From assembly GCA_964464105.1 (NCBI GenBank), contig CAYXEY010000001.1, positions 1 through 43,278 of the forward strand: DNA of 43,278 nucleotides, written 5' to 3'. The stretch comes from an uncultured Planctomycetaceae bacterium. Its GTDB lineage: Bacteria > Planctomycetota > Phycisphaerae > UBA1845 > UTPLA1. Shown here one piece after another: positions 1,015 to 41,614 of the stretch. A model generated the notes under the pieces. It saw only the letters and a list, made by a program, of their open reading frames with translations. It did no database searches and had not been told where the DNA came from. Made by a program: the position numbers and the translations under genes. Position 1 is the stretch's first letter; each line of letters begins with the position of its first letter.

Positions 1015-2916
1015 ATGCACGCACTTAGAAGTCTAAGCATAAAAAGGAGACTATGGATTCCTGTATTTGTTCAGCTCCTGTTCCTCATCCTGATTGGCAC
1101 CTCCTACGTCCGCAGTTCGGAGCTGAGCGAGAAGCAGCAGGCGGATAGTGCAGCAACCGCAAGCCTCGCTTCAGCCGTGCGAGCGGTCGGCAGCGGCGTG
1201 CAGAACTATCTGTATGGAAAGGCAGAGTATGGCGCCGTGCAACAGCGACTACGCGAGGCCGAAGCGGCAGCCCTCGCGCGCGCGCAGACTGATCTAACGG
1301 AACGACTCAACGAGATTGGCAGCCTGGTTGAGCAGATTCAGGACACCTTCGAGCGCAGCAATGCCATACGCAAAACTATCTTTGATCTGACCGAATATTC
1401 CATCAAACAATCCGACGCTTATATTATACAGACAAGCGACCGCCTTAACGATCCGGGCGAACACACGAAAGTCACTCAATTGGAACGCCAGGTCCTGAAA
1501 GCAGCTCTCGTCAATAGCACGGACAACCTCAGAATACAGCTTCTTTTTTCCGCCATCGAAGACGATCTGGGCCGCAGCTCGGAGCTGGTACAATTCCTTG
1601 AGCGTGGAATCGAACGCACCGCAACTGCAGCCCAAAGACTCGCAGGGACTCCACTTCAGCATATGGCGATCGAAGGCGGCAAGGCAAATCAACAAATCCG
1701 TGATCTTGTACAGCGCCATATCAAGAACGTCGAACGACGCACGGAAGCCTCCAAGCATGTATTTTCAATCACCGATAGCCTCCTTGACTCCATCCGCAAG
1801 CTCGAGACCAACCGCCAGAAAATGGTGTTTGACGCCTTTACCAGCTTCCTGAGCACACTGATGCTCGTCATGCTTATTGCAACCGTCGCATTGATTCTAT
1901 TTCTTTTTGCGTTAGCTCGCAGCATCAGCAATCCGCTGCGCAATTTGACTCATACCATGGAACAACTTGCCCAAAATGGCGGCAATCTCACGTTCCGGCT
2001 GCCGGCGGAGCGTCATGACGAGATAGGCATCGTTTCTCACAGCGTCAACCAATTCATTGGCAAGCTGCAAGACATCTTTTGCGAGGTCTCGCACATTGTG
2101 GCCGCACTCGATATGGCAGCGGCGAGCACCAGCGAAAGCAATAGTGCCGTCAGCACAAATGCAGCGCAGCAGAAGCAGGAGACCACGCGTGTCGCACTCG
2201 CAATCACAGACATGGAGCGTTCCATACAGGAAGTCGCTGGCCGTGCGGCAGATGCAGCGGGCAACGCCGGCAGTGCCGACAATAACGTTCGACAGGCGCT
2301 CGAATCGCTCGAGAACAACATCCGCGGCATCGAGGACTTGGCTGCGCAGATTGCCGACACCCGCAAGCAGGTTGTCCAGCTAGAGCGTGATAGCAAGAAT
2401 ATCGGCGGCATCCTGGACGTCATCCGTGGAGTGGCCGAACAGACAAATCTGCTGGCACTAAACGCCGCAATCGAGGCAGCCCGCGCTGGTGAGCAAGGAC
2501 GAGGCTTTGCGGTGGTTGCCGACGAGGTGCGCGAACTGGCGTCCCGCACACAGGAAGCTACCCAACGCATACGGGAAATGATCGTCAATCTGCAGGGAGC
2601 GACAGACAAGGTTGCCAGCGCAATGGAGACCGGTGATGACCTGACTCAGAAATGCGTGGCGGTCGCTCGTCACGCGGGCCTGCAGCTCAATGACAGCGCA
2701 TCTGCGATAACCGAAATCAGTGATCAGACGGCCCAGATCGCAAGGGCGGTAGAGGATCAGAGCGCAGTGGCCAAGGAAATAGAACGCAATATCTTCGTCA
2801 TCGCCGACGCCGCCCACAGCACCGCGGGTGAAGCAGGCAATGCCGCCGAGACCGCTGAACAGCTGGCTGGGCAGGCTCGCCGCTTGGCAGGTTTGGTTCA
2901 TCAATTCAGTGTCTAG
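1015..2916 (+). CDS. Methyl-accepting chemotaxis protein (two TM segments, ~260-aa periplasmic helical sensor region, HAMP, MCP signalling domain)
   Basis: 633-aa ORF with GAGGA shortly upstream of the ATG. TM1 '[20 protein letters not shown]' and TM2 '[20 protein letters not shown]'. Invariant MCP hairpin tip '[38 protein letters not shown]'. Confidence 0.9.
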
Positions 2917-3115: not shown

Positions 3116-6699
<3,584 letters not shown>

Positions 6700-7656: not shown

Positions 7657-7721
7657 TGGGTGTTCGCACCGATTGAAGTTGCCATCGAGGCAGATGCCTA
7701 ATGGAATCTCGCGAGAATCAC
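7657..7721 (+). promoter_or_regulatory. Promoter-like element, copy C, upstream of bssD (GTGTTC-G-CACC-G-ATTG core; putative -35 TTGAAG at 7673-7678 and -10 CCTAAT at 7697-7702)
   Basis: Shares the 17-nt core and the CTAATG box with copies A and B at almost the same spacing (1 nt difference from ATTG to AATG). The -10 lies 118 nt upstream of the bssD ATG at 7821. Confidence 0.4.
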
Positions 7722-16174: not shown

Positions 16175-17449
16175 ATGACCGACGCGAGTCGCGGCACCAC
16201 GCGCGCCCGGGCGCCCGCCGCAGCCGTCGGGTGCCCTGCCGCAGGTCCGCTGCCAAGCCGCAGTGCGCGTCTGCTGTGGCTGATCACCGGCTTCTGGATG
16301 TTGCAGCCCCTGTCGACCGACCTCTATCTGGCGTCGCTGCCGGAACTGGCGTCGTCCTTCCGCGTGCCGCCGGCGACGGTGCAACAAACTTTGTCGATGT
16401 TTGCGCTCGGCGTTGCCTTGTCGCAGCTTGTCAGCGGCCCCCTGTCGGATCGCTTTGGCCGCCGCCCGGTCCTGCTGGGCGGCTTACTGATTCATGTCGC
16501 GGCAAGCATGGCCTGCGCATTCACCACGCACATCGACGCGCTCATCGCCGCCCGCTTCGCTCAGGCCGCCGGCAGCTGCACCGTCGCCGTCATCGCCCGC
16601 GCAGTCGTCCGCGACGCCTACTCGGTCGGTGAAGGTACGCAGGTGATCGCCCACTCGACGAGCGTGCTTGCGGTAGCCCTGCTGCTCGCCCCCATCGTCG
16701 GTGCCCAAGTGCAGACCACCTTCGGCTGGCGCGCCAACTTCGCGCTGCTGACGCTCGCCGGCACCGCCCTCGCACTAACCTCGATCGTGCGCTTCACCGA
16801 GACGAGGACGCAGCACAACCCCGTGGCGATCCGCCCCACCGCGCTGCTGCGCAACTACGGCGCGCTGCTGCGTAGCCCCGGGTTCTGGGCATACGCGTTG
16901 CCCGGAGCGCTCTCATTCGGGATGGTATTCGTCTTCATCTCCGGCGCATCGTTCGCACTCATCGACGTGCTCGGCGTGCCCACGCGCTACTTCGGCTACT
17001 GCTTCGCACTCGGCGTACTCGGTTACCTGGTCGGCACCCAGGTCTGCCGGCGCATCCTGCCGCGCTACGGGCTGTCGCGCACGCTCCGCCGCGGCAGCAC
17101 GCTGTCATTGGTGGCGGGCCTGAGCTTGGGCGCCGGACTCACGCTCGGCCTGCAGCACTGGACGACCGTCGTCGTCGCCCACTTTCTCGTCACCCTCGCG
17201 CACGGCATCAACAGCCCATGCGCGCAGAGCGGTGCAATCGCGCCCTTCCCCGAAAAAGCCGGCACCGCCGCGGCCCTGCTCGGATCGCTGACGATGCTCT
17301 CGGCCTTCCTGGTCACGACGCTGATCGGCGCAAGTTACGACGGCACGCTCCGTCCGCTCGCTGCCGTCTGCGCGCTGCTCGCGCTCGCGCTGTTCGTCGC
17401 CGAACGTGCCCTCGCCGCACACCGCCCGGCTGAGGAGGCACGATCATGA
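16175..17449 (+). CDS. MFS transporter, Bcr/CflA-like (possibly the BssH-type transporter)
   Basis: About 12 predicted TM segments. N-terminal family motif 'LSTDLYLASLPELASSF' and 'GPLSDRFGRRPVLLGG'. Start uncertain: 16130 (listed) or the ATG at 16175. Confidence 0.85.
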   Translation: MTDASRGTTRARAPAAAVGCPAAGPLPSRSARLLWLITGFWMLQPLSTDLYLASLPELASSFRVPPATVQQTLSMFALGVALSQLVSGPLSDRFGRRPVLLGGLLIHVAASMACAFTTHIDALIAARFAQAAGSCTVAVIARAVVRDAYSVGEGTQVIAHSTSVLAVALLLAPIVGAQVQTTFGWRANFALLTLAGTALALTSIVRFTETRTQHNPVAIRPTALLRNYGALLRSPGFWAYALPGALSFGMVFVFISGASFALIDVLGVPTRYFGYCFALGVLGYLVGTQVCRRILPRYGLSRTLRRGSTLSLVAGLSLGAGLTLGLQHWTTVVVAHFLVTLAHGINSPCAQSGAIAPFPEKAGTAAALLGSLTMLSAFLVTTLIGASYDGTLRPLAAVCALLALALFVAERALAAHRPAEEARS

Positions 17450-18030
17450 CCCTTCCCCTACCCGGCGGCGAAGCCGCCTGGATTGCCGCGCGCGCTGACG
17501 CTTCGCGCTACGTCCTGTCCGAACACGTGATCCGCGCGCTGATGGCGGGGCGGATATGCGTCCCGCAGATCGAAGCCGCGCTGCGCGGCGGTCACGTCAT
17601 CGAGGAACACCGGCATCGCGAACGCGACCCCGCTTACCTGCTGTGCGCGGTCCACAACGGCAAGCCGGTGCATGCGATCACGGCGCCACGCGCCGACGGC
17701 TGGCTCGTGGTCACCCACGCCTACGTGCCGGCGCCCCCCTTGTGGCGCACCGCATTGCACCGTTCTTCAGGAGAGCCGACGATGTCCGATTCGATCACGA
17801 CCTGTTTCTTCTGCGGCGGCGCCATCAAACAGGTGACCGTAGGCAATTTCGACTACCGCCTCGAGGGACGGCTGTATGTCATCAAGAAGGTTCCCGCCGG
17901 CCTGTGCCAGCAGTGCGGCGAAAAATACGTCGATGCCGAGGTCGGGCGGCGGCTCAATACGCTGATCGCACAGCAGGCCTTCACCGGCAGCGAGGCCGTC
18001 AGCGTCATCGACTACGCGACCGCGCCGTGA
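17446..18030 (+). CDS. DUF4258 toxin-like domain fused in frame to a YgiT/MqsA-type zinc-finger domain
   Basis: N-terminal half 'YVLSEHVIRALMAGRICVPQIEAALRGGHVIEEH...DPAYLLCAVHNGKPVHAITAP...VVTHAYVP' is DUF4258-like. C-terminal half 'CFFCGG...VPAGLCQQCGEKYVD' is YgiT-type. No stop between them. An internal AGGAGA plus ATG at 17782 could start the zinc-finger part separately. Confidence 0.65.
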   Translation: MTLPLPGGEAAWIAARADASRYVLSEHVIRALMAGRICVPQIEAALRGGHVIEEHRHRERDPAYLLCAVHNGKPVHAITAPRADGWLVVTHAYVPAPPLWRTALHRSSGEPTMSDSITTCFFCGGAIKQVTVGNFDYRLEGRLYVIKKVPAGLCQQCGEKYVDAEVGRRLNTLIAQQAFTGSEAVSVIDYATAP

Positions 18031-29609: not shown

Positions 29610-30044
29610 TTAGATCTTGCGGAATTTGTAGCTGATCAGCGGAACACCATCGCGGTTTTCGCGAACGGGTCCGACTGTAAGCTCAACCGTTTCGTCGCAG
29701 CGGAAGCTGCCGGGCTCGCCCTCCAGCTGCGCAAATATCCGCAAATCTTCCGGCAGGTCGATATAGCCGAAGGAATAGGGCGTCTTCATGCCCGCCTGAC
29801 CGATGAAGTTGTCACTAAAGCTGTAGAGCTTGCCGCGGCGGCTGAGCGGCACGACATCGAACTCCTCGCCCCAGCAGCTCGGGCAGGGGCTCAACTTCGG
29901 AAAGTCCAGCTGCCCGCAGCACTTGCAGCGATAACCCTTCAGATACGGCGCGCTACCGTCGGCAGGCACCTCCAGCAGGTCCGGATGGAAGAACGTGATA
30001 TCCGGCTTCTTTTCCGGCTTCTTGGTCGGTTTTTGATCTGACAT
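29610..30044 (-). CDS. bbsA: DUF35 OB-fold/zinc-ribbon protein (thiolase small subunit, BbsA-like)
   Basis: The ATG at 30044 has GGAGG upstream. 144 aa with zinc ribbon 'CKCCGQLDFPKLSPCPSC' followed by an OB-fold region. Lies directly upstream of the thiolase. Confidence 0.85.
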   Translation of the reverse strand: MSDQKPTKKPEKKPDITFFHPDLLEVPADGSAPYLKGYRCKCCGQLDFPKLSPCPSCWGEEFDVVPLSRRGKLYSFSDNFIGQAGMKTPYSFGYIDLPEDLRIFAQLEGEPGSFRCDETVELTVGPVRENRDGVPLISYKFRKI

Positions 30045-30060
30045 GACACCTCCGCAGGAA

Positions 30061-30130
30061 TTGTTTCGTGTTCGACCTGGAGTCATTAGAGCGCGCGTGC
30101 CGACACGCAACAATTGGTCGGAACACCTAA
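30061..30130 (-). promoter_or_regulatory. Promoter-like element, copy B, upstream of bbsA (GTGTTC-C-GACC-A-ATTG core; putative -35 TTGTTG at 30108-30113 and -10 TCTAAT at 30085-30090, 17-nt spacer)
   Basis: See copy A (52/70 identical). Inverted arms GTGTTCcGACC and GGTCGAACAC flank the -35/-10 region. The -10 lies 40 nt upstream of the bbsA ATG. Confidence 0.45.
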
Positions 30131-30957
30131 GGGATAAGAACAATCCCTGCCCCCGAAACACCGCGCAAACCCGTGCACCGATCTTCGCGCTCCCGCCAAG
30201 TTCGCCGAAAACGAGGCCCCGACTCCTTTCAAAACCGAAGGTTGGCGTCATCGCCGTCGAGCACTTGTCCCGCCCGCTGGCGGAGCCCCATTGCAGGCAT
30301 GCCCCCAGAGCGCTCCGCTGCAGACATGCCTGCCGGGATCGCTGCCTTGGGGTACGTCAAGCTCGTGGAAGTCGGTCGGGGCAAGGCCGCGCAGTGGCGC
30401 CGGCGCAGGAAGGAAACGGAGGCGCTGATGGCGCCCGGGGGGCAGAACTGGCGCGTTACCAGCGATCCGGTGGAGCCCTTCGCTGCCCTGCTGCCATCCC
30501 ATGGATACAGCATCCCGATGATCCCCAGCCACCGGCTTCCTCGCCACCGGCAAGCGCACGACCCATACTCACCGCAGCCGCCAAGTCGATCGATGTCGTA
30601 CCCGGAAATGGCGCAATCGTGACCGGTCCGGCACAGTCGAAACTCCACGCTTGACCGTACAGCACACCGATCACGATCGTGCGAATGCGCGGCGAGCCTT
30701 GCCGCCATCGACCGCCAGCGTTCGGCCCGCGCATTACCCATTTCGCGGCGAGCCTGGCGCCGACTTCAGGTGCCGCATGCGTTCCAGCCGGGCCAGCTCA
30801 AGGACTGCCGCACGGGAGTCGGGAACCAAGCCTCCACCTCCATGCCTGCCCTCCACCCGCGGCCGGCGCCAGCCGGCCAGGGCGCCCCCCGCCTGCCGTC
30901 ACGGCGCCGGCCTTCCATGACGCACTTCCAAGCCCGGACTGAATGCCTGCGCGATCG

Positions 30958-32262
30958 TCAATCTCCCCCGCGCAGGTTCTGCACGGCGAAAAGCGACGGC
31001 GGATTGAGAGCGGAGTCCGTAATCATCCTCAGCTGCAATGTCGTGCAGTGCTGTGCTTGAACATCGAACATCGAAGCCCCGGTGTAAATAGCGATCCCGG
31101 CATTCTTGTTGGCGGGTGCATGGAACGCCGAGTCGCTAAAACTGACCGTCCACACTTTCCAAAGCTCGCCCTTGCGATCATAGATCAGCAACATAGGCAA
31201 AACCGAGGTCTCCGCGTCCATGTAAATTACGCGCTTCCCGATCGGACTGGCCTTGTTTGTCGGCGTCCCCTCCAGCACATGGACGGTGCGCAGCGACCAC
31301 GGCACATTCATGAAGCAATTGCTTTTCCCGCCAAACGTGATCTGACCATAACCATCGGAATCCTTCTCCTCGTTGCCTTTCCACTCGCTGTGGCGATAAA
31401 CGGGCAACAGCGCATTCCTTGTTTCGACGTACTTCCACTCCATGTCGAGAACACGCCCGTTGTAGCCTTCGAAATCCTCGATCATTAGATCCGAGCCGAG
31501 AAACGAATCCGTGGTTTGTCCGGTCGCCAAACGCCGGACACGACGCTGAAAGCCCAGGTAAAGATACGAATCATCGAGCTTTGTGTCATCGTCGTAGCGG
31601 TGAATCAGCAGCTGCGTATTCTTCAAATCGTTTGGCGCGAGCACCTTGAGATATATCCCCCGATAGATATCCGATGGATTCGGCTCGATATTCGGCATGG
31701 GATCCTGCGTCACACGATGCTTGAAATTTATAAAGTGAAAATCGAAATCGATCTTGCGCTCGACCTTCCCGCTCTTCGCGTCCCTATAGGTCCAGATGAA
31801 CGGATAAATACGCCCACTGTCGCCGACGATCTGCGCATACTTGAAGTTGAACGCCAGCTTCTCTCCTGCTCTCGGATCGCCTCCATCGGGCTTTTCAGGA
31901 AATGGCCGACCAGCCACATAGCCTTCCAACGTACCGGAATTGCTACCCAGCTTCACCTTTCCAGAATGCTCACGCGTTGCCGCAATGTAATTTGGGTGAA
32001 GCGGAATTGGGTGAGTATCCTCGACCACAATCTCCATGTCGCCCTGACCGATCATCTTGCCAATCTCTTGATCCAGAACACCCTTGAACTGCCCGACGTT
32101 AGCTTTATTGATTGCCACACCAGCCGTGACCCCAGGAGCAGTCGGCACCTTGCTCTTGTACGGATTGAACGAATTTTCAATTTCTGCGTCGCTCGCCGCA
32201 TACGCCACGTTCATGCCGGCCATGAGAGAAACCACCAGCAGCGCCACCTTGGTCATTTTCAT
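30958..32262 (-). CDS. DUF1329-like secreted protein (outer-membrane lipoprotein-sorting/LolA-like family)
   Basis: 434 aa. Signal peptide 'MKMTKVALLVVSLMAGMNVAYAA'. 'GYVAGRPFPEKP...GEKLAFNFKY' fits my memory of the DUF1329 pattern. Adjacent to a DUF1302-like gene, as is usual for this family. Confidence 0.75.
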   Translation of the reverse strand: MKMTKVALLVVSLMAGMNVAYAASDAEIENSFNPYKSKVPTAPGVTAGVAINKANVGQFKGVLDQEIGKMIGQGDMEIVVEDTHPIPLHPNYIAATREHSGKVKLGSNSGTLEGYVAGRPFPEKPDGGDPRAGEKLAFNFKYAQIVGDSGRIYPFIWTYRDAKSGKVERKIDFDFHFINFKHRVTQDPMPNIEPNPSDIYRGIYLKVLAPNDLKNTQLLIHRYDDDTKLDDSYLYLGFQRRVRRLATGQTTDSFLGSDLMIEDFEGYNGRVLDMEWKYVETRNALLPVYRHSEWKGNEEKDSDGYGQITFGGKSNCFMNVPWSLRTVHVLEGTPTNKASPIGKRVIYMDAETSVLPMLLIYDRKGELWKVWTVSFSDSAFHAPANKNAGIAIYTGASMFDVQAQHCTTLQLRMITDSALNPPSLFAVQNLRGGD

Positions 32263-32283
32263 TTCAATATCTCCTCGATCGAA

Positions 32284-34296
32284 TCAGAACTTATAGATCA
32301 ACTTGAAATAGATGTCGTCTTCCCGGAACGCAGCACCAATCGGTCCGGCACGGAAACGACCGAGCGGTTCGAGCCCCCCCAGTCCTGCCGACTGCCCGAC
32401 CGCTTGGCCAGGGAAGTAGGTATTCGTGAATGGCTCATAGGGTGCGTTGGAACGCGTATCGTCGAACTTGTAGCGATCATCTCCGTTTGAGGTCTTGTAA
32501 TTCGCACCAACGGTCAACTTCAGATCATTTGTGACGATCCATTCAACCTGCGGCGCCAGAACAGAGGCCTTCGCCCTGAAATCGCGAACAAGAATGAGCT
32601 GCGGGCTAACCCTGCCATTCATCAAAGACCCCTTGACGAGCAGAGTGCCAATAAAGTTATCCTTCCAGTCCGGAATGCCAACCTTGCCCAACGGTCCGTC
32701 TTTGCTCTCGTGATCGAATATGTGCTGATAGAAAAGCTGCCCCGAAATCAAGGTGGCGGATTTTTCGCTGATCAAGGGAATGAACGTCGGCCGATCCACT
32801 CCGATCACCGACCTGAACACACGGTTCTCAGAATAAAGTTTCTCCCGCGCCGTATTGACGAACTCTTCGCCTTCAGTGAGCGCCATCTCAACCCGCACCG
32901 CCGCTGCAGCATCGGGAATCTGAAAGTCCATCGAGCCACCGATCAGGTTGACTCGTGGGAAATGCATATCGAAGGCGATCAGATTCTTGACCGGCACGCC
33001 GGAGCTGTTCCCGTTTCCGCCCGTGAATGGATTAACAGTGCCGCTGCCGTTAATGGAATGCAGACTCGGCAACTGAGAGCGATAGGTCAGCGCGTTCAAC
33101 GAGAAGGCAAACCCATTCTGGGTCACACCCTCATATTTGACCCCGAGCTGCGTATTATCAAGAGACCAGTCGGGGAGATTGACATTGCGAATACCAATCT
33201 GTTGAGGGCCGAAATCCGTGGCAACCGTTCCATTCCCGGCAAAGTTGGCGACTGTACCGCCGTTATCCCATAGGTTTGCCATCCCCCGGAAGAAGCAACC
33301 GGCATCGAGAATCACGTTCGGCTGACCGCACTGACCGAGATTGTTGGCCCGGAACTTGTCGAAGTTCCACACCACCTGAAGGTTTCGATCCTGCATCGAC
33401 TCGCTCGCACCCATACGGTATTCGGCCTGTACCATCCACATCGGAATGCGGATGTCGGCGAGCTCATCGTAGATATTGTTTCGGGAGTAATCGACCGGGT
33501 TGATGACATCCAATACTCGGAATAGATCGGTCCGCCCCCAGACCACTTGCTGCTTTCCAAGCTTCAAGAAAAGTTCGTTGCCATTCTCCAAATGCAATAC
33601 CTTCCTTGCGTAGGCTTCACGGATGAAATCGAGACGATCGTTGAACTCGGGCAGTTCCAACTCGCTACGTTTCAAATCCCCGTATCCACCAAAGTCACGA
33701 CAGCCTCGCTTGTCCGTATCGCAGGGACGGACGGGCACGCCGAATGCGACCCCACCCTCGGTATGGTGCCAGCGGTCGCCCAACACACGCATGCCTTCAT
33801 TCGGATTCCTGGTCAGATCAAAACCGAAAGCATTGGTCGACGGCAGACCGAACGCTTGCCCGATCGGGTTGTTGACACCGCCGCCCCAGGGAACCTGCGA
33901 CTGATTCAGCGGCGTCCCGGCATTTGTTGGCACCGGAGGCAGACCGGGGCCGGCGACATTCTCGATCGTGACCGCCCCCCCGGCCCCCCTGCCGTAGTCG
34001 CCACTATTCATGCGATAGACACCATCCCAGCTCCCGCGCAGGATGCCGTGCGCCACCCAGCCGTCAGCCATCTCCTTGTTAAATTCCGCCTGCATGGTGT
34101 TGCGGAATTTGGCCAGGCCGACATTCTGGCGATTTACCGTATGGTTCTCATAAGTGACATCCACCTCCCACGGGGATGCGTCTTCTCCCAATGCGGGCAA
34201 ATCGCTCTTCGCTCCCGCGCTATTGGCAGTGAGACCAAGCCATGCGGCTGCAGCCAAGAACTGCAATCTGCGACGCTTTCTGTCAATCTTGTTCAT
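32284..34296 (-). CDS. DUF1302-like outer-membrane beta-barrel protein
   Basis: 670 aa. Signal peptide '...AAAWLGLTANSAGA'. Alternating beta-strand-like pattern with a C-terminal aromatic 'YFKLIYKF*', typical of OMP barrels. Confidence 0.7.
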   Translation of the reverse strand: MNKIDRKRRRLQFLAAAAWLGLTANSAGAKSDLPALGEDASPWEVDVTYENHTVNRQNVGLAKFRNTMQAEFNKEMADGWVAHGILRGSWDGVYRMNSGDYGRGAGGAVTIENVAGPGLPPVPTNAGTPLNQSQVPWGGGVNNPIGQAFGLPSTNAFGFDLTRNPNEGMRVLGDRWHHTEGGVAFGVPVRPCDTDKRGCRDFGGYGDLKRSELELPEFNDRLDFIREAYARKVLHLENGNELFLKLGKQQVVWGRTDLFRVLDVINPVDYSRNNIYDELADIRIPMWMVQAEYRMGASESMQDRNLQVVWNFDKFRANNLGQCGQPNVILDAGCFFRGMANLWDNGGTVANFAGNGTVATDFGPQQIGIRNVNLPDWSLDNTQLGVKYEGVTQNGFAFSLNALTYRSQLPSLHSINGSGTVNPFTGGNGNSSGVPVKNLIAFDMHFPRVNLIGGSMDFQIPDAAAAVRVEMALTEGEEFVNTAREKLYSENRVFRSVIGVDRPTFIPLISEKSATLISGQLFYQHIFDHESKDGPLGKVGIPDWKDNFIGTLLVKGSLMNGRVSPQLILVRDFRAKASVLAPQVEWIVTNDLKLTVGANYKTSNGDDRYKFDDTRSNAPYEPFTNTYFPGQAVGQSAGLGGLEPLGRFRAGPIGAAFREDDIYFKLIYKF

Positions 34297-34317
34297 TTTA
34301 TGCCCCCTCCTCGCTGA

Positions 34318-36789
34318 TTACGGCTTCAGTAAAAAACCGAGTTGACCGCCATCCGATGCCCCCTCTTCGAAGCGCTCCGCTTCACGACCTGCCGCTTCCT
34401 CCTCATTCTCAAGGACACCATCTTCGTCGTACTTGGTGGCGATTACGAACCTTGGCCGGAATACCACGCACCACGACGGCACAATCAGCATCGCGGCAAT
34501 TGCATTTACGATGAGCATGAAAGAAAGCAGCACAGCCGCATCTGATTGGAAGCGCAGATCGGACATGAAAATCCACATCGCCACACCGGCAATCAGGGTA
34601 GCGGCGGTAAAGCTCACGGCGTAGCCGGTGGTCGCCACGGCGTTGATAACGGCCTTTTTCAGATCGCGGAGTTCGACGAATTCCTCCCGAATCCGGTCCA
34701 TGAAGTAGACCGCATAGTCGATACCGACACCGACACCGACGGCGATCACCGGCACTGTATTGACATTGATACCAATATTCATCGCCCCCATGTAGGCATA
34801 GGTCATCAACGTCGAGAACAACATCGGCAGGACCATCAGCCAGCCCGCATGAGCTGAACTGTAATAGATGGTCACCAACGCAAACGCGAGGATCATCACT
34901 GCCGGGATGATGATCATGTGATCGGAGTGGAGCGCCTGATTTCCAGCGGCCGTAACGCCGAGAATACCGCCCCCCAGTTCGATATGCAGGCCCGGAACCT
35001 CCGCTTCGATCTGCTTGATCCCGTCCTCTGCCAACGCGACGATACGATCAACGGTTTCCGCCCGATGGTCCTTGTAGTAAAAGACCATGTTCGCCTCGTT
35101 CTCGTCCGAGGTTATGAACTCTTTCAGCGCACCTGGAATGGGGCTCGACGCCATGTAGGCAAACATCAGCCCCCCCATTTCCTCGGCGGTGTCGGGCAAC
35201 TGCATCCAGCGCGGATCGTCGTTATGGGTGAGCTTATTCACCACTCTGATCACGCCTGGAATCGCCTTGGTGCCGCCCAGTTCCGGATCTGACAGCATAT
35301 GCGCCTGGAACCGCTCGATGGCTGCCATCACTTCCGGACGTTTGATTCCACCGATCTCGTCGGTGCGGGCCACGACATGCAGTTCCTCGGAGCCGGGAAA
35401 GCGCGTATTGATCGCCTTGGTCGAGAGGTTGTAATCGTGGTGCTGATGTAGCAGAGGGGAGCCTGGCTCCGACTCGCCAAGTTGGACACGGCTGATGAAG
35501 TAGGTACAACCAATCGCGCCGACGAGGGTGAGGACAAGAATGCTGCGGGCGCCGCCTTCAGTGCCCCCCGTAAGTGCCATGAAGCCTCCCAACAGCTTTC
35601 GCACACCTTGGTTATCGTTCTCGGTCTTCCTTGGCTGCGGCAGAATGGTGAGCGCGAGGGGCACCATGAAATGCACCGTGAAAATGACCGAAAAGCCCCA
35701 GAAACCCGCAGCGATACCGAGCTTGTGATTGAACGGGGCGGCACCGAGCACGAGCACTGCGATGCCGATCGCGTCGACGATGATTGCTAGCGACCCCGGC
35801 CGGAAGAGCGCATCCAGAGCATTCCGGGCAGCCAGCTTGCCGTTCTTGACGATCGCCAATTCTTCATAGTAGCGAGCCACCAGTTGCACACCGTGCGATG
35901 TCGCACGCGCGGCGATCAGGAACGGGATTGGCAAGGATAAGGGCTCGAGGTTGATGCCCATCAACGCCATGAACCCCAATCCCCATATCGTCGACAAGGC
36001 GATTCCTAATACGGGTAGCGCAATGCCGTATAAGGTGCGGAAGTAGACGATCAGCAAGACGGCCAGCAACAACATGGTCCATGCCAGGATCTCCACAATC
36101 TGCCCGACATAGGTATAGACCCAGCCGGTCAGCACCGGATTGCCGGTGACATAGATCTGGTGGCCTGCGGTGGCAATCGACTTGCGCACTTCCTGCAGTG
36201 CGCCGAAAGTCGCCGGGTAGTCGATATCAGACTCGTTCAGCTGCGCCCTGATCAGCGCCGCCTTCAGGTCCGGGGACACCAGCAGACCGTAGATAGTCGG
36301 GTTGGCGATGACGTCGTTCTTGAGCTGTTCGAGTTCCGCGACGCTCCACTCCCGCTTGGAGGGGTCGTAATAGGATTCGGATCGGAATGAACCCTGCTCG
36401 TCGAGGAAAACCTTGCGCGCCGTGCGGTGAGTCAGACTGCTAACCAGGTTGTGATTGACGCCAGGCAGACTATCGACGCCCTTGGTCGCCTCGTGAATGA
36501 GCCTGAGTGTTTCATTGTTGAAGATCGTCCCTTTTTCGACCTCGACCGCCATTATTATTACGTTGGCGCCGCCGAAGTTTTCCTTCAGCCTGTTATACAC
36601 CTTGATGTAGGGATGGTTCTGCGGCAGCAGATCGGAAAAATCCGTGAAGATCCGAAGCTTGGGCAGGGCGATTCCGAAGAGCATCGTCACCGCCAAAATC
36701 AGCGACAGGACAATTTTCGGATTGCTAAAGATCCATTCCTCACCCCGATGCAGCCTGTGAGTAATGGAATGACGAAATTGGGTGACCAT
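34318..36789 (-). CDS. RND-superfamily transporter, MMPL/HAE3-like (two 6-TM bundles)
   Basis: 823 aa. Two repeats of a large loop plus hydrophobic bundle, e.g. 'GIALPVLGIALSTIWGLGFMALMGINL' and 'NTVPVIAVGVGVGIDYAVYFMDR'. Confidence 0.88.
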   Translation of the reverse strand: MVTQFRHSITHRLHRGEEWIFSNPKIVLSLILAVTMLFGIALPKLRIFTDFSDLLPQNHPYIKVYNRLKENFGGANVIIMAVEVEKGTIFNNETLRLIHEATKGVDSLPGVNHNLVSSLTHRTARKVFLDEQGSFRSESYYDPSKREWSVAELEQLKNDVIANPTIYGLLVSPDLKAALIRAQLNESDIDYPATFGALQEVRKSIATAGHQIYVTGNPVLTGWVYTYVGQIVEILAWTMLLLAVLLIVYFRTLYGIALPVLGIALSTIWGLGFMALMGINLEPLSLPIPFLIAARATSHGVQLVARYYEELAIVKNGKLAARNALDALFRPGSLAIIVDAIGIAVLVLGAAPFNHKLGIAAGFWGFSVIFTVHFMVPLALTILPQPRKTENDNQGVRKLLGGFMALTGGTEGGARSILVLTLVGAIGCTYFISRVQLGESEPGSPLLHQHHDYNLSTKAINTRFPGSEELHVVARTDEIGGIKRPEVMAAIERFQAHMLSDPELGGTKAIPGVIRVVNKLTHNDDPRWMQLPDTAEEMGGLMFAYMASSPIPGALKEFITSDENEANMVFYYKDHRAETVDRIVALAEDGIKQIEAEVPGLHIELGGGILGVTAAGNQALHSDHMIIIPAVMILAFALVTIYYSSAHAGWLMVLPMLFSTLMTYAYMGAMNIGINVNTVPVIAVGVGVGIDYAVYFMDRIREEFVELRDLKKAVINAVATTGYAVSFTAATLIAGVAMWIFMSDLRFQSDAAVLLSFMLIVNAIAAMLIVPSWCVVFRPRFVIATKYDEDGVLENEEEAAGREAERFEEGASDGGQLGFLLKP

Positions 36790-36809
36790 TTTCTCGCTCT
36801 CTCCTTCGC

Positions 36810-37766
36810 CTATTGGTTGTTGGCGACGCTAACGGTGCGTAGCAAGCCACGAGGACCTCCGATAACAACTGCGGAATGGCCCGGCAATGAAGCACCACCA
36901 CCCAGGAACACCGGCAGTGCGTCGGTATATGGCACGGCACGCCAGATGTTTCCGTCCAGACGAGCGATCACTCCACCGTTACCCACTCCGTAAGGCACGT
37001 CCTTGTGAAGAAACATGCGGTTCAACGAAGCCGATGTTTCGTTAACCTGTTTGCTCCACGTTTGCCCGCCATCGCGGGTGTGCACAATCTGGCCAGCGAG
37101 TCCCGACACCCATCCTTCGTTCCGGTCGCGGAAGACCGCCGCATACGGATAGAAGTCGCCCGGAAGCTTTGGCCCCTTCCTCCAAGTCGCACCGCCGTCT
37201 TCACTCGTCACCATCAGGCCGAATTCACCAAACGCTATGGCATTCCGGCCATCGATGAACTGGATGGTCGTAACCTGAGTGTCTTCGCCAAGATCGGTAA
37301 TGCGCCAGGTCTTGCCCTGATCACGGCTGCCAGCGATGACGGAGTTCACACCAGCGACCCACCAGCCGCCCTGATCGTCGCAGGCGACAGCCAGCGGTGT
37401 GCGGGGCCGCTCCAGTTCGCGCGGCCGCCAATCGTTGCCATCCTTTCCTGCAAACCAAACCTTGCGGTAATGATCGATGGCGACGAAACCGCTTTCACCG
37501 CAAACGGCGATATCGATCATCGAGGCATGGCCGAGAACCTTCCGCCGCCAGGTACGCCCTTGGTCGCCGGATACCAGCACGGCACCGTTCTGTGTTCCGA
37601 CCACCACCACTTGCCCGTTGGCTGCAATAGCCTGCGCCACGTCGTAACGCTGCGGCTGACGACTGCGCTCCGCGGCCAGACCGGACAGGTCCGGCCCTTG
37701 GCTGCAGGCGACCATCTGCAGGCACAGCACCGAAGCACCGACTCTCTTCAAACACGCAAACGTCAT
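36810..37766 (-). CDS. BNR/Asp-box repeat beta-propeller lipoprotein (Ycf48/photosystem II assembly factor-like)
   Basis: The ATG at 37766 has GGGAGA upstream. Lipobox-like 'LCLQMVAC'. Four Asp-boxes: 'SGDQGRTW', 'SRDQGKTW', 'SEDGGATW', 'TRDGGQTW'. The listed start at 37805 is 13 codons longer. Confidence 0.8.
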   Translation of the reverse strand: MTFACLKRVGASVLCLQMVACSQGPDLSGLAAERSRQPQRYDVAQAIAANGQVVVVGTQNGAVLVSGDQGRTWRRKVLGHASMIDIAVCGESGFVAIDHYRKVWFAGKDGNDWRPRELERPRTPLAVACDDQGGWWVAGVNSVIAGSRDQGKTWRITDLGEDTQVTTIQFIDGRNAIAFGEFGLMVTSEDGGATWRKGPKLPGDFYPYAAVFRDRNEGWVSGLAGQIVHTRDGGQTWSKQVNETSASLNRMFLHKDVPYGVGNGGVIARLDGNIWRAVPYTDALPVFLGGGASLPGHSAVVIGGPRGLLRTVSVANNQ

Positions 37767-38559
37767 TCTTGTCTCCCGCTTTCCCAGACCCTCGCGGCCC
37801 GCCATTCGAGGCGCGCTCGTCTACCACCTGAACCAAACCAATTGACCTCGCGCATCCAGGATGCGAACTCGCGCGTCACCAACGGAAACAGCGCGAGGAC
37901 CGCTTGGTCAATGGGAATATGGTTTTACGTTTCGCATCGCTGAAGAAGCCGTATCCGGGATACCGGCTCGGCATTTTTTCCGGCTTTCCGGAACTACTGC
38001 ACGTCGAGTTGCACAGGGCATAGCTTTCACATCAACAGAATGAACAACCAACGCAGGTCACCTCTCCTCGCCATTCTCGTATCGGCTGGCTTGCATTAAC
38101 GTCTCTGCGCGAAACGAAGAAAGTGCATTGACTTTAGTTCGCCGAGCAAGCGCTTTGGTGAGGTTCGACGAGTTGCCGGCATGACGCCGCCTACTGCTTA
38201 ACAGCGCGTTAGCCATGGTTTGCGCGGGATTGGTTTTTGACTAAATGGCAGCAGCTACACAAGTACGCCAAAGATCACCGCGTAGTGTCTATGCCAGGCA
38301 ACCTTCGAGCTTTGCGCAGCGAACTGACGATGGCTGCAGGCTAGGGGGCTTGCACCACCGCGACAAGTGGTGCTAACACTCAAACGCCTAGGGCCAGCCC
38401 TACAGACGAAGCGCGGGTGTTGCTGCAGAATCTCCAAGGCGCCTGATCGCCTGCTGTCCTGAGCAAGCTCACCCAAGCCAGCCATTCATGCCGACTACGA
38501 TGATCATGTCTTCCACTTGCACAGCTGCTTTGCGAGGCCTTTCGAGTCTCGTTAGCCCT

Positions 38560-39153
38560 TTTGTGGGCACAGCGGATGGATGCTGGCCATCAACTCGTCA
38601 AAGCGGGCCGTGCGAGATCGATGTTGGTCAACCGGGTCCGCGTAGCCCCCGAGACGATGTGCGTCGCACCGCTTCCGCAGTGCGCGTCCTCGCACGCAAG
38701 CCCGCGCTTGACGAGGCAGAAGGCCTGCTCGACCCGAGCGAGGACCGTGCGCGTACTAGGGCTGTTGCGCTTGCCCGTTTCGCTGACCGGATGCCGCCTG
38801 CGGACGATGAGCGAGACACCCGACAACAAGCCCGCTTTTCGGGCCTGTCGTGTGATGATGTTGCTCACGTAGCCCTTGTTGCCGAACGCGGCCGGGTCAT
38901 CATGGTGCAGCGGTGGCAGCAGCTGGCCGCGTTGTTCGTGCGTGCCGTCGATGATGTTCATCATGTGCCCGGTGAGCGCGTGCTTCTCGAGCAGGTGCCG
39001 GAACTTGAGGATGGCCGTCTCCCCGGACGGTACGCCGTGGGTCGGGTCCATCCCAGCAAGGCGGCGCATCGCCCCGACTTCGCTGTGAGCATCCTCCATC
39101 GCCGGGTCGAGCGACGCATGGCACTGCTGCATCAAGCACATCCGCCACATCAT
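38560..39153 (-). mobile_element. IS5-family DDE transposase remnant (N-terminally truncated, internally deleted pseudogene)
   Basis: 'DPAMEDAHSEVGAMRRLAG...SGETAILKFRHLLEKHALTGHMMNIIDG' aligns with the InsH-type 'DGAMEDALYEIASMRLFA...DRTTIMNFRHLLEQHQL' region. '...ARVEQAFCLVKRGLA' aligns with 'ARVEHPFRIIKRQFG...'. The DDE core between them is missing. Confidence 0.7.
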
Positions 39154-39208
39154 CGGACGCCAGCTTTTTCACAAGACGCAGCTTGCCGGCAAAGAGGAGA
39201 AAAACCAC

Positions 39209-40849
39209 ATGAGCGGATACCTACCAAAGGAGCGCAAGATGCACGGGGATAACACAAGCGACTCCGCCGCCGGGTACGAAGTCATATTCCGCAACACGCC
39301 CTTGGCGATCTGCCACTTGCGGAACCGCATTTTCGTCCGCTGCAATACGCGACTTGAAGAGTTGTTCGGCTATTCGAGAGGCGAGCTAGACAATCGGTCT
39401 GTACGGCTGCTGTATCCAACCGAAGACTCATTCCAGATAATCGAAGACACATACGGTCATTTCTTCGAACGCCACGAAACCTTTAAAGACGAGCGCCCGT
39501 TTATTCGTAAGGATGGCTCTGTCGTTTGGTGTATCGTGACCGGTGCGCTGCTTGACCCTTCCAGGCCACGGCTCGGATCGATTTGGGTAATTCAGGACAT
39601 ATCCGAACACAAGCGCATAGAGGACAATCTGAAGGCCAGCGTCGAAAAACTTGAAATCCTGGTCCACCAACGAACACTCGAGCTACACAAGCATGTCAAG
39701 GAGCTCGAGCAGGAAGTTGCAACGCGGAAGCTAGCGGAAGATGCTGCGAACGAGAACCGGGAAAAATACGAGAAACTCTTTCATATGCTCCCCATCGGAA
39801 TTTCGATCACCTCCGATAGCGGCATGATTCTTGAAGCCAACTACCAGTTCAACGAAATTATCGGCGCTCCTAAAACACCTCCCGCAACATGGCAACAACT
39901 GCCTCAACGATTCTCTCTCAGCGACGGGACGGGGGTATCGAAGAGACGATTGCCTTGGCGGATCCACGACCTCCAAAGAGATTCACTCAGAAATATCGAG
40001 ATCGGGATGCAAGACGAGGAGAGCCACAAGGTTCGGTGGTTGAGCGTCAGCTCATCGTTACTGGAGCTCAAGAACGAGAAGATGGTCGTGGCGGCATTCA
40101 CCGACATCACGTATCGCAAGCGGATCGAGAAACTGGAGAGGTTGCGCCACGCGGAACTCACCCGCCTTGGGCGTATCGACGCGATGGCGGGGATGGCTGC
40201 AGCACTCGCACATCAAATGGGCCAGCCCTTGGTTTCAGCAGTCAATTACCTTCAGGGCTGCCGACTGCGGCTTGAACATGTGGAGGGCACTGCGGAGATT
40301 TCTCGATCGCTGGAGCTTGCGACAACTCACCTCGATCAGGCTGGCGAGATTCTAAGGCGGATCAAGGATTTCGTCTGCAAGCACAAACCCGAAAAAGTTC
40401 CCGAGAGCATCAACGAAGTCATTCAGGACACGCTTTCATTTCTTAGTTTCGAAATTCATCGATTCAAGGTTGAAATTCAGCTCCAGCTGATGGCTTCGCC
40501 TCCGCTTGTCCCTCTCTGCAAGATTGAAATCCAGCAGGTTCTTTTCAATCTGATCAAGAATGGAATCGAAGCAATGTCTGAAATGGAGCCACCTTCTCGG
40601 ATACTTACAATCGGAAACGAAGTTATCGCTGAAGGACGATTGATGAAGGTATTCGTCCAAGACCATGGCGCTGGCCTCGAGCGAAAGACGGCCAAGCGCG
40701 TCTTCGAGCCCTACTTCACAACCAAACCGGACGGACTCGGGATTGGGCTGGCAATCTGCCGATCGATTATCGAATCACACGGCGGCGAACTTTCGTTTTC
40801 GAAGACAGAGCAACGCGGATCACGATTCCAGTTCACCTTGCCAATGTAA
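39209..40849 (+). CDS. tdiS: PAS-domain sensor histidine kinase, TdiS-like
   Basis: 546 aa with GAGGAG 9 nt upstream. Two PAS regions ('VIFRNTPLAICHLRNRIFVRCNTRLEELFGYSRGEL', 'LFHMLPIGISITSDSGMILEANYQFNEIIG'). H-box 'AAALAHQMGQPL'. ATPase 'QDHGAGL...GLGIGLAICRSIIESHGG'. Confidence 0.85.
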   Translation: MSGYLPKERKMHGDNTSDSAAGYEVIFRNTPLAICHLRNRIFVRCNTRLEELFGYSRGELDNRSVRLLYPTEDSFQIIEDTYGHFFERHETFKDERPFIRKDGSVVWCIVTGALLDPSRPRLGSIWVIQDISEHKRIEDNLKASVEKLEILVHQRTLELHKHVKELEQEVATRKLAEDAANENREKYEKLFHMLPIGISITSDSGMILEANYQFNEIIGAPKTPPATWQQLPQRFSLSDGTGVSKRRLPWRIHDLQRDSLRNIEIGMQDEESHKVRWLSVSSSLLELKNEKMVVAAFTDITYRKRIEKLERLRHAELTRLGRIDAMAGMAAALAHQMGQPLVSAVNYLQGCRLRLEHVEGTAEISRSLELATTHLDQAGEILRRIKDFVCKHKPEKVPESINEVIQDTLSFLSFEIHRFKVEIQLQLMASPPLVPLCKIEIQQVLFNLIKNGIEAMSEMEPPSRILTIGNEVIAEGRLMKVFVQDHGAGLERKTAKRVFEPYFTTKPDGLGIGLAICRSIIESHGGELSFSKTEQRGSRFQFTLPM

Positions 40850-40906: not shown

Positions 40907-41614
40907 ATGCAACCCACAACGATCGAAAGTACGCCAACAGTATTTGTCGTCGACGACGAGGCGTCGGTCAGAGACTCGCTCGCTTGGCTCCTCAATTCGA
41001 TCTCCCTGAATGTTCGGACATTCGAATCCGCGAGAGATTTTCTTGACGCCAACGTTTCCTGTCTTTACGGCTGCCTTATTCTCGATGTTCGAATGCAGAA
41101 CGTAAGTGGATTGCAGTTGCAACAGGCACTGTACGAAAGGAACTTCAAGCTCCCGATAATTTTCCTTTCAGCCTACGGCGACGCCCAGATGGGCGCACAG
41201 GCAGTCAAGAGAGGCGCCTTCGACTTCCTTCAAAAACCTTACCGCAATCAGGATCTACTCGATGCGGTGAACGCCGCACTCGCGGCATGCAAAGAGGCGA
41301 GAGATAAGCAAAGTGAAAAACAAAAACACCTCGACCTTCTTTCAACATTGTCACAACGGGAATTGGAAATCCTTGAAAAGGTCGTTGCCGGAAACAGCAG
41401 CAAAGAAATTGCCAGATTACTGGACATCAGTTACAAGACCGTTGAAGCACACCGAGGGCGCATCATGAGCAAGCTTGGATTAAGATCCACCGGCGATCTG
41501 ATTCATTTCACGATCCGTAACAGCAGTCATTGCGGCGACTGCGAATGGAGCTCTAATACCGGATCGAAATCACGTCTTCCTGCACCTGGGAAGTGCCCCT
41601 CCAGATCAGAATGA
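40907..41614 (+). CDS. tdiR: FixJ/NarL(LuxR)-type response regulator, TdiR-like
   Basis: 235 aa. Receiver 'VFVVDDEASVRDSL...LILDVRMQNVSGLQL...IIFLSAYGD...KRGAFDFLQKP'. HTH 'LSQRELEILEKVVAGNSSKEIARLLDISYKTVEAHRGRIMSKLG'. About 35-aa Cys/Ser-rich tail after the HTH. Confidence 0.85.
   Translation: MQPTTIESTPTVFVVDDEASVRDSLAWLLNSISLNVRTFESARDFLDANVSCLYGCLILDVRMQNVSGLQLQQALYERNFKLPIIFLSAYGDAQMGAQAVKRGAFDFLQKPYRNQDLLDAVNAALAACKEARDKQSEKQKHLDLLSTLSQRELEILEKVVAGNSSKEIARLLDISYKTVEAHRGRIMSKLGLRSTGDLIHFTIRNSSHCGDCEWSSNTGSKSRLPAPGKCPSRSE

Follow-up and report, generated by a model that had tools for sequence, protein, structure and literature searches.

A stretch of 43,278 nucleotides (nt) from an uncultured Planctomycetaceae bacterium (contig CAYXEY010000001.1, hereafter the window) was analyzed in this study with a focus on four adjacent genes of its toluene-degradation island, which are located on the minus strand between the regulatory genes tdiSR and the benzylsuccinate gene bbsA. 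These four open reading frames (ORFs) form a real module, which is very probably an envelope system of the AmeABCD type, that is, a four-component system containing a resistance-nodulation-division (RND) transporter and linked to aromatic catabolism. The genes of the module are as follows.

36810-37766, minus strand: BNR lipoprotein, Ycf48-like, of the AmeC/PP_2018 type; 318 amino acids (aa) from the ATG at 37766; first gene
34318-36789, minus strand: RND inner-membrane transporter, MMPL/HAE3-like, of the AmeD/PP_2019 type; 823 aa
32284-34296, minus strand: DUF1302 outer-membrane beta-barrel, of the AmeA/PP_0765 type; 670 aa
30958-32262, minus strand: DUF1329 periplasmic LolA-like protein, of the AmeB/PP_0766 type; 434 aa; last gene

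The original prediction, made from the sequence without database searches, had described four same-strand genes; both the genes and their strand were borne out, and the gaps between them, given there as 18–21 nt, were measured at 20, 21, and 21 nt, with a Shine–Dalgarno sequence of the GGAG type in each. A longer alternative ORF of the BNR gene extends to 37805. The window and L001–L003 carry each of the four ORFs in intact form. In two otherwise identical sequences (L004 and L005; GCA_001310835.1, BAZL01000054.1), the RND gene is split into three or four fragments, which could represent either a sequencing artefact or real decay.

Conservation of the module across aromatic pathways

An alignment of the RND protein was scanned against species-representative genomes, which identified 197 relatives, and the best 80 of these (76–85% identical) were taken together with 10-kb flanks; relatives at this level of identity occur in Rhodocyclales. 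A survey of four-gene co-occurrence had been proposed with the original prediction, and in this set it gave a uniform result: the order BNR-RND-DUF1302-DUF1329 on one strand is kept in 70 of 70 loci with all four genes, so that the arrangement exceeds what would be expected by chance. Genes of catechol meta-cleavage (…ADA-HOA-4OD) are located no more than 2 kb upstream on the same strand in 52 of the 63 loci whose upstream DNA was long enough for this evaluation. The meta-cleavage operon lies just downstream of the module in three of these loci (Thauera) and on neither side in the other eight.

Median identities to the window proteins are 83% for the RND transporter, 65% for the DUF1302 protein, 56% for the BNR lipoprotein, and 54% for the DUF1329 protein, the last being the fastest-diverging component and one that regroups by context. 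Relatives of the DUF1329 protein with 60–75% identity are found in several other aromatic contexts, including a full module adjoining phenylacetate (paa) genes (L093), a DUF1329 relative adjoining an XylR-type activator and an extradiol dioxygenase (L089), and further DUF1329 relatives adjoining AraC/PaaX regulators and an oxygenase reductase. On an IncP plasmid of Pseudomonas veronii from an aniline-contaminated site, the BNR and RND genes are neighbours of the phenol-hydroxylase genes dmpKLMNOP and of a sigma-54-dependent regulator.

The identities of the individual components rank discordantly among islands (L043, L093, L095, and L007), as illustrated by Dechloromonas, in which the RND protein is 85% and the DUF1329 protein 54% identical to that of the window. 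This discordance points to possible recombination between the pair of the inner membrane and that of the outer membrane, which would fit two predicted subcomplexes.

A distant cassette is also present on the conjugative plasmid 2 of Aromatoleum aromaticum EbN1 (L097; NC_006824, 214006-220512), with an RND protein 34% identical to that of the window and the same C-D-A-B order in Ame terms. The genes of this cassette (YCF48-related, MMPL, DUF1302, and DUF1329) lie amid a beta-oxidation-like cluster of thiolase, BbsA-like Zn-ribbon/OB-fold, CoA-ligase, and hydratase genes.

Component families and predicted folds

Pfam searches upheld all four family assignments of the original prediction. The BNR protein matches PSII_BNR (2e-17), and a sequence search matched it to solved Ycf48 structures at 1e-16. 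It contains the lipobox MVAC with Cys21 and four Asp-boxes (residues 66, 147, 188, and 230), and 69 of 75 BNR orthologues have a lipobox-like motif. The RND protein matches MMPL in two stretches (1.6e-32), and its best NCBIfam model is TIGR00921 (HAE3), at 153.7 bits and hence below the cut-off of 351.9. Its hydropathy profile contains 11 peaks as well as weakly hydrophobic stretches near residues 285–305 and 650–668; the topology is read as one transmembrane segment (TM1), a loop of about 185 aa, TM2–7, a second loop of about 190 aa, and TM8–12, with both loops predicted to be periplasmic. The match to MmpL3 structures is weak (2e-5 over about 95 residues).

For the DUF1302 protein, DUF1302 is the sole Pfam match (1.5e-43). 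The protein has a signal peptide, and its C-terminus reads ...IYKF with a terminal Phe. Its AlphaFold2 model (pLDDT 78, pTM 0.79) is a barrel of about 18–20 long strands, which agrees with the 18-strand barrel of the Pseudomonas DUF1302 protein (PMC13499233). A sequence search against structures found no solved structure of any sequence relative. Every one of the 50 Foldseek matches listed is an outer-membrane barrel (MOMP, PfeA, general porins, chitoporin, and AlgE), with TMq of at most 0.36 and none of them close.

The DUF1329 protein matches both DUF1329 (1e-71) and LolA_like (3.5e-16) in Pfam and has a signal peptide with an AYA/A cleavage site. Its AlphaFold2 model (pLDDT 89, pTM 0.88) was matched by Foldseek to Porphyromonas gingivalis LolA3 (9tp6; 5e-18, TMt 0.84), to the DUF1329 crystal structure 4z48 (3e-16), to 3bk5, and then to classical LolA. 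An additional N-terminal region of about 120 residues, mostly helical, lies outside the LolA-fold targets of about 240 residues. An esterase function of the DUF1302 and DUF1329 proteins, an idea of Thompson 2020, was rejected: the folds are those of a barrel and a LolA-like carrier, and no hydrolase match was found in Pfam.

Taken together, the lipobox, hydropathy, signal peptides, and folds support the placement of the components in the inner membrane, periplasm, and outer membrane that had been predicted. The biochemical function of the three non-pump components, as was also stated there, is still unestablished.

Copies upstream of bbsA and candidate TdiR-box promoters

The module is located directly upstream of bbsA in three further islands, which are listed here with their gene order and with identities to the window proteins.

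Herminiimonas sp. CN (L043): IS remnants (IS, insertion sequence), module, IS remnant, bbsA-F; BNR 68%, RND 83%, DUF1302 66%, DUF1329 71%
Aromatoleum petrolei ToN1 (L095): tdiS, tdiR, TodS-like gene, module, bbsA-H; BNR 39%, RND 59%, DUF1302 72%, DUF1329 53%
Aromatoleum buckelii (L096): tdiS, tdiR, module, bbsA-H; BNR 41%, RND 59%, DUF1302 70%, DUF1329 53%

The bbs proteins of A. petrolei are 74–96% identical to those of the window (87–96% without BbsC), and its module is far more diverged.

The palindrome GGTGTTCGCACC, which lies just 5′ of the −35 region at PbssD as well as at PbbsA, is the TdiR box proposed in PMC5874301. Elements with such a box precede the BNR gene in all three islands. 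The Herminiimonas element reads AAGTGTTCGCACCAATTGTCG, followed by a 17-nt spacer and TATATT, and is located 232 nt from the ATG. In A. petrolei, AGGTGTGCGCACCAATTGTTG (box match starting at position 6391 of L095) is followed by a 17-nt spacer and TACATT at 128 nt from the ATG, and the A. buckelii element (AGGTGTCCGCACCAATTGTTG, 17-nt spacer, TACATT) forms a conserved patch in a spacer that has otherwise diverged. Inspection of the A. petrolei island revealed a strong terminator-like hairpin with a T-run after the DUF1329 gene, and PbbsA has a separate box there, which indicates that the module of this strain is a transcription unit of its own.

A comparable element is present in the window, together with the box of the neighbouring bbs promoter.

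38338-38380, minus strand: putative TdiR-box promoter of the module, with the box AGTGTTAGCACC at 38369-38380, −35-like TTGTCG at 38361-38366, a 17-nt spacer, and −10-like TAGCCT at 38338-38343
30111-30127, minus strand: TdiR box of PbbsA, a perfect match to the box motif

The module element of the window reads GAGTGTTAGCACCACTTGTCG, a 17-nt spacer, and TAGCCT; its match starts at 38379, which is 613 nt before the BNR start codon. The box pattern used for scanning, GTGT[TG]NNNACC[ACG][AC]TTG, was widened after this site had been seen. It has four matches in the window (PbssD at 7660, PbbsA at 30126, upstream of a chemoreceptor gene at 592, and on the module strand at 38379) and none in 1.39 Mb of control loci; by our own estimate, about 0.02 matches would be expected in the window by chance. 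A plain alignment of the regions upstream of bssD, bbsA, and the BNR gene revealed no common block near the BNR start. Similarly, BLASTN of 37767-39300 against the upstream regions of the Herminiimonas, A. petrolei, and A. buckelii modules found no extended homology, the short box-promoter element alone being in common. Judged from its sequence, the element at 38338-38380 may serve as a TdiR-controlled promoter of the module, which thus would apparently belong to the toluene/benzylsuccinate-responsive TdiSR regulon of the island.

Several observations were made around these elements. In a near-identical metagenomic contig (L002), a complete IS of 1.55 kb (L002 2367-3917) is inserted at window position 38341-38345, within the putative −10 region, and the 5-bp overlap of its flanks suggests a target duplication. 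A palindrome at 37851-37865 on the minus strand, with 7-bp arms (CGCATCC-T-GGATGCG) and a flanking direct repeat GCGCGAG, lies 85–100 nt before the BNR start codon and might act as an operator or form a hairpin in the leader RNA. A third good box and promoter of the TdiR type, CTTAAGTGTTCTGACCGATTGTTG…CAAATG, is found at 583-650 on the plus strand, about 420 nt before a methyl-accepting chemotaxis protein (MCP) gene (1015-2916, plus strand), which suggests that this chemoreceptor gene may be toluene-regulated. In addition, a metagenomic contig of 20 kb (L090), the BssA of which falls in the same 90%-identity cluster as that of the window, encodes a DUF1329 homologue (10001-11314, 64% identical) directly after the last gene of the bss operon; the contig ends 278 nt past this gene.

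Surroundings of the module in the island

The module is flanked by the following features.

39209-40849, plus strand: tdiS, with PAS domains and HATPase_c (Pfam)
40907-41614, plus strand: tdiR, with Response_reg and GerE (Pfam)
38590-39153, minus strand: IS remnant with the N-terminus of a DUF772 transposase, between tdiS and the module
29610-30044, minus strand: bbsA, with ChsH2 domains (Pfam), on the same strand as the module and downstream of it

The tdiS and tdiR genes are located upstream of the module in divergent orientation; they are 70 and 67% identical to tdiS and tdiR of A. petrolei, respectively, and TdiSR is presumed to be the regulator of the module. Between the module and the IS remnant, the 5′ side consists of about 570 nt of unassigned DNA and then the promoter-like element. 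A 254-aa ORF on the opposite strand (38488-39252, plus strand) was rejected as a gene, since it has no Pfam match and overlaps the IS remnant. Downstream, bbsA starts the operon of benzylsuccinate beta-oxidation, and further bbs genes follow it in L001. The spacer between module and bbsA (30045-30957, 913 nt) is G+C-rich and contains no Pfam-recognisable ORF. A terminator scan found no terminator-like hairpin at the DUF1329 stop codon and two weak terminator-like sites deeper in this spacer. At the same position, an rve integrase remnant occurs in Herminiimonas, and the Aromatoleum spacer is 215–270 nt long with a terminator-like hairpin.

The G+C content is 0.53–0.60 in the module, 0.52–0.55 in tdiSR, and 0.63–0.69 in the bbs genes, with a sharp change at the DUF1329 stop codon. 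This switch at the junction, the IS remnant upstream, the full IS in the putative −10 region of the related contig, the frameshifted RND gene of one assembly, and a window promoter element that is degenerate and distant from the gene would all be in line with a module that was brought by chance into a mosaic, IS-rich island and has no toluene function, being perhaps poorly expressed. We regard such a history as very unlikely, because the placement upstream of bbsA recurs in three islands with diverged modules, all of them with well-conserved TdiR-box promoters, and because the four ORFs have stayed intact in the window and in L001–L003.

Elsewhere in the window, bssDCABEFG and following genes, a TodS/TodT-like pair, and the chemoreceptor gene were identified. 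The TodS/TodT-type pair (979 and 215 aa; 3116-6687, minus strand) adjoins bssD in the same manner as tutC/tutB in Thauera aromatica T1 and comes on top of tdiSR, which lies at the opposite end of the island. Within the bss block, an ORF (17446-18030, plus strand) encodes a DUF4258 domain with a weak MqsA-antitoxin-like match, and a DUF4258 ORF of 194 aa occupies the equivalent position in the bss cluster of L090. No Rfam match was found in 29900-39300, and a megablast search of the module against plasmids returned no match.

Comparison with described systems

The original prediction considered the module the best candidate in the window for an undescribed system. This view could not be maintained, as the same four-family set constitutes the cofit cluster of Price et al., AmeABCD, PP_0765/0766 together with PP_2018/2019, and the “Nanopod” cluster of a benzene degrader. 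It had further been stated that knowledge was limited to fitness-level links of DUF1302/DUF1329 in pseudomonads, and here the literature goes well beyond that statement, with an ameABCD deletion, P. putida mutants, AlphaFold complexes, and expression in a benzene degrader having been published.

Genes for DUF1302, DUF1329, COG4447 BNR, and COG1033 RND proteins are conserved neighbours that are cofit in Shewanella and Kangiella (Price et al., 10.1101/072470). Cofitness of the four was likewise reported for P. stutzeri, with the cluster divided into two pieces, and for some P. fluorescens strains (Price et al., 10.1101/072470). The same study listed further occurrences of DUF1329 genes, namely a phenanthrene island, a steroid cluster, and the p-cresol-induced pipA/pipB of Thauera aromatica T1 (Price et al., 10.1101/072470). 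In P. putida, mutants of PP_0765/0766 and PP_2018 have specific defects on Tween 20 and butyl stearate, and a PP_2019 mutant has one on Tween 20 (10.1101/2020.07.04.188060). AlphaFold predicted a PP_0765-PP_0766 complex, corresponding to an outer-membrane subcomplex, and a PP_0766-PP_2018-PP_2019 trimer, corresponding to an inner-membrane one (PMC10866462), and complexes of Pseudomonas homologues have also been published in PMC13499233. The cofit cluster of Price et al. (Sama_1588-1591) and the P. putida genes (Thompson 2020; Foldy 2024) share the families of the module and act jointly in genetic terms. Those copies differ from it in being chromosomal, split over two loci in pseudomonads, associated with Tween 20/fatty-ester or pleiotropic phenotypes and with LuxR-type regulators, and without a link to an aromatic pathway.

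The closest parallel is the cassette of Castellaniella defragrans 65Phen, which was named AmeABCD, lies within a monoterpene island, and is up-regulated on alpha-phellandrene (Puentes-Cala & Harder 2018, PMC6394551). Deletion of ameABCD lowered monoterpene tolerance and raised the accumulation of Nile Red, and every member of the AmeD lineage was reported to occur with the other three genes (PMC6394551). Similar to the module, AmeABCD is a single cassette of the same four families in a hydrocarbon-catabolic island without an MFP/TolC partner (MFP, membrane fusion protein), a likeness drawn from families and gene set. It differs in its gene order (A-B-C-D versus C-D-A-B here), in its substrates (monoterpenes versus presumably toluene), and in the TdiR-type box found here. 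In the methanogenic benzene degrader ORM2a, a cluster of porin-like, DUF1329, YCF48-related, and MMPL proteins is among the most abundant protein sets, the direction of transport being left open by the authors (PMC13101534). This “Nanopod” cluster resembles the module in its four families, in its location on a genomic island, and in its host, which degrades an aromatic hydrocarbon anaerobically and has these proteins in abundance when growing on it; the cluster differs in belonging to Desulfobacterota, in its extra genes (universal stress protein and hypothetical), and in its very distant sequence.

Among stand-alone RND proteins, HpnN (a characterised HAE3 member) and MmpL3 (MMPL family) share the 12-span, two-loop MMPL-type architecture and, under the mechanism proposed here, the use of protons to draw hydrophobic cargo out of the inner membrane, but work without a dedicated barrel, LolA-like carrier, or propeller partner. 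Orthology to either was rejected, with scores of 49.4 bits for TIGR03480 (cut-off 751.85) and 27.6 for the MmpL3 model (cut-off 1400). Both proteins carry lipids, although their match to the RND protein of the module is weak and below cut-off, and acyl chains are bound by LolA-fold proteins. These facts raise the alternative that an endogenous lipid or outer-membrane component is exported, comparable to hopanoids by HpnN or trehalose monomycolate by MmpL3, and hardens the outer membrane, aromatics being a signal rather than the cargo. The pleiotropic phenotypes of Shewanella and P. stutzeri and the role proposed by Price et al. (10.1101/072470) fit such remodelling, as does the finding of DUF1302 and DUF1329 proteins in outer-membrane vesicles and nanopods of Delftia. 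Paralogous cassettes, each with a different catabolic island of the genome (monoterpene, phenol, toluene, phenylacetate, or beta-oxidation), mildly favour substrate-specific handling over one housekeeping lipid, and the rapid divergence and regrouping of the DUF1329 protein point the same way. An endogenous lipid cargo is, in our estimation, an explanation of low probability.

The module probably shares its physiological role with pumps of the HAE1 kind (TtgGHI, SrpABC, and AcrAB-TolC), by which toluene and other solvents are expelled; genes for such solvent pumps often lie near catabolic genes. HAE1 pumps consist of an ACR_tran RND protein, an MFP adaptor, and a TolC-type channel, in contrast to the MMPL RND protein here. 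A classical tripartite pump was thus rejected for the module: the RND protein matches MMPL and not ACR_tran, and no gene for an MFP (HlyD) or an outer-membrane factor (OMF; TolC/OEP) was found among the scanned window ORFs, which agrees with the original remark that these usual partners are lacking.

A likeness of another kind exists with the Lol pathway (LolCDE-LolA-LolB), in which the inner membrane likewise holds an energised extractor, a soluble protein of the LolA fold acts as carrier, and the acceptor is in the outer membrane. The differences lie in the energy source (ATP and an ABC transporter versus, as proposed here, proton-motive force and an RND protein), in the acceptor (a lipoprotein versus a large barrel), and in the cargo (lipoproteins versus presumably a small hydrophobic molecule). 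The FadL-type proteins TodX and TbuX are likewise outer-membrane proteins of toluene catabolic clusters that handle hydrophobic aromatics; they belong to Pfam Toluene_X, and the DUF1302 barrel is much larger. The FadL fold has 14 strands. Identity of the DUF1302 protein with a channel of the FadL/TodX type was rejected, given its sole Pfam match and the lack of FadL structures among the 50 Foldseek matches listed.

Proposed function and direction of transport

In the reading that we favour, exposure to toluene would lead TdiSR to turn the module on. The MMPL/HAE3-like RND protein would run on proton-motive force and have the Ycf48-like propeller lipoprotein as a partner in the periplasm, and this pair may draw toluene or related hydrophobic molecules out of the inner membrane or the periplasm, the cargo being most likely toluene or a related aromatic. 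The cargo would then be passed to the soluble, LolA-like DUF1329 carrier, in a hand-off order that is our proposal, and the carrier would dock on the DUF1302 barrel, through which the cargo would leave across the outer membrane. A layout of two subcomplexes would thereby stand in for the MFP/TolC bridge of classical RND pumps, and the net effect would be protection from solvent stress and less loading of the membranes while the Bss/Bbs enzymes consume the substrate. We place the full reading, a toluene-induced, proton-driven export of hydrophobic aromatics for solvent protection, at about even chances.

The role in handling toluene or other hydrophobic solutes that the original prediction had put forward gains comparative support from the bbs-linked copies, the TdiR boxes, and the aromatic neighbours, whereas we infer substrate and direction. 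RND transporters are proton antiporters that move their substrates outward.

The opposite direction has to be weighed for the same components. In an uptake system, the DUF1302 barrel and the DUF1329 carrier would import toluene or other aromatics past lipopolysaccharide and periplasm, and the RND–BNR pair would receive or release the cargo at the inner membrane. Such a role would fit the embedding of the module in catabolic operons of several pathway types, the occurrence of DUF1302–DUF1329 pairs without an adjacent RND pump beside oxygenase and regulator genes, loss-of-function phenotypes that are growth defects on the substrate, and the result that Pfam scans found no FadL/TodX gene in the window; the direction left open in the benzene study (PMC13101534) leaves room for it as well. 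On the other hand, no RND transporter is known to power inward transport, and deletion of ameABCD led to more dye accumulation and less tolerance (PMC6394551). Tween 20, moreover, is a detergent, and its phenotype can equally be read as stress. The listing of a TbuX/TodX uptake channel in the aromatic cluster of D. aromatica indicates that the module is no simple replacement of such a channel; it also argues against redundancy and, mildly, against a pure uptake role. We consider import unlikely.

Several points weigh against the export reading and its regulation by TdiR. Regarding the promoter, the module box of the window is the weakest of the four and has two mismatches to the Herminiimonas box; the −10 sequence TAGCCT is poor, the element is remote from the start codon and behind the IS remnant, and a generic scan for sigma-70 promoters gave no hit upstream of the module. 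Neither TdiR binding nor toluene- or benzylsuccinate-dependent transcription of the module or of the bbs-linked copies was found in the searchable literature. Regarding distribution, the 90%-identity clusters of the window module proteins have just 7–12 members, and most sequenced bss/bbs islands, for example that of Azoarcus sp. CIB, are not known to have the module. Regarding function, the HAE3 match of the RND protein is sub-threshold, the mutant phenotypes could be compatible with uptake too, and the export of their own growth substrate would be costly for aquifer bacteria at micromolar toluene. Finally, Price et al. proposed the export of envelope components and described the Shewanella and P. 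stutzeri phenotypes as pleiotropic (10.1101/072470). The module genes could not be matched to a “putative toluene transport system” that PMC5874301 shows in its Fig. 2; in strain CIB this system appears to correspond to tol genes such as tolR.

Beyond the export reading itself, the module might represent a distinct class of RND efflux that works as a Lol-like solvent relay with a diffusible carrier rather than as a continuous MFP/TolC duct. Anaerobic toluene catabolism would then regularly be accompanied by such a system under TdiSR control, and meta-cleavage pathways by one under other regulators, with the fast-evolving DUF1329 protein setting substrate specificity. We offer this broader generalization tentatively and hold it to be rather doubtful.

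Significance of the module

The composition of the module and its proposed role will not surprise a specialist; what is new is where it is placed, how its genes are ordered, and the probable control by TdiR. In the searchable literature, no report was found of the systematic attachment of this orthologous group to meta-cleavage operons or of the TdiR-box promoters of the bbs-linked copies, and specialists may know them already. No mechanism has been solved for DUF1302, DUF1329, or their Ycf48-like partner, although these proteins recur beside hydrocarbon, phenol, steroid, and ester pathways. The island and its Herminiimonas and Aromatoleum relatives provide a clean test bed in this respect, with TdiSR as an inducer system, a predicted promoter, a defined hydrophobic substrate, and the cultivated A. 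petrolei ToN1 and A. buckelii. The direction of transport matters for solvent tolerance in bioremediation and production strains, and an answer as to whether toluene is expelled or imported would bear alike on AmeABCD, the P. putida system, and the benzene “Nanopod” cluster.

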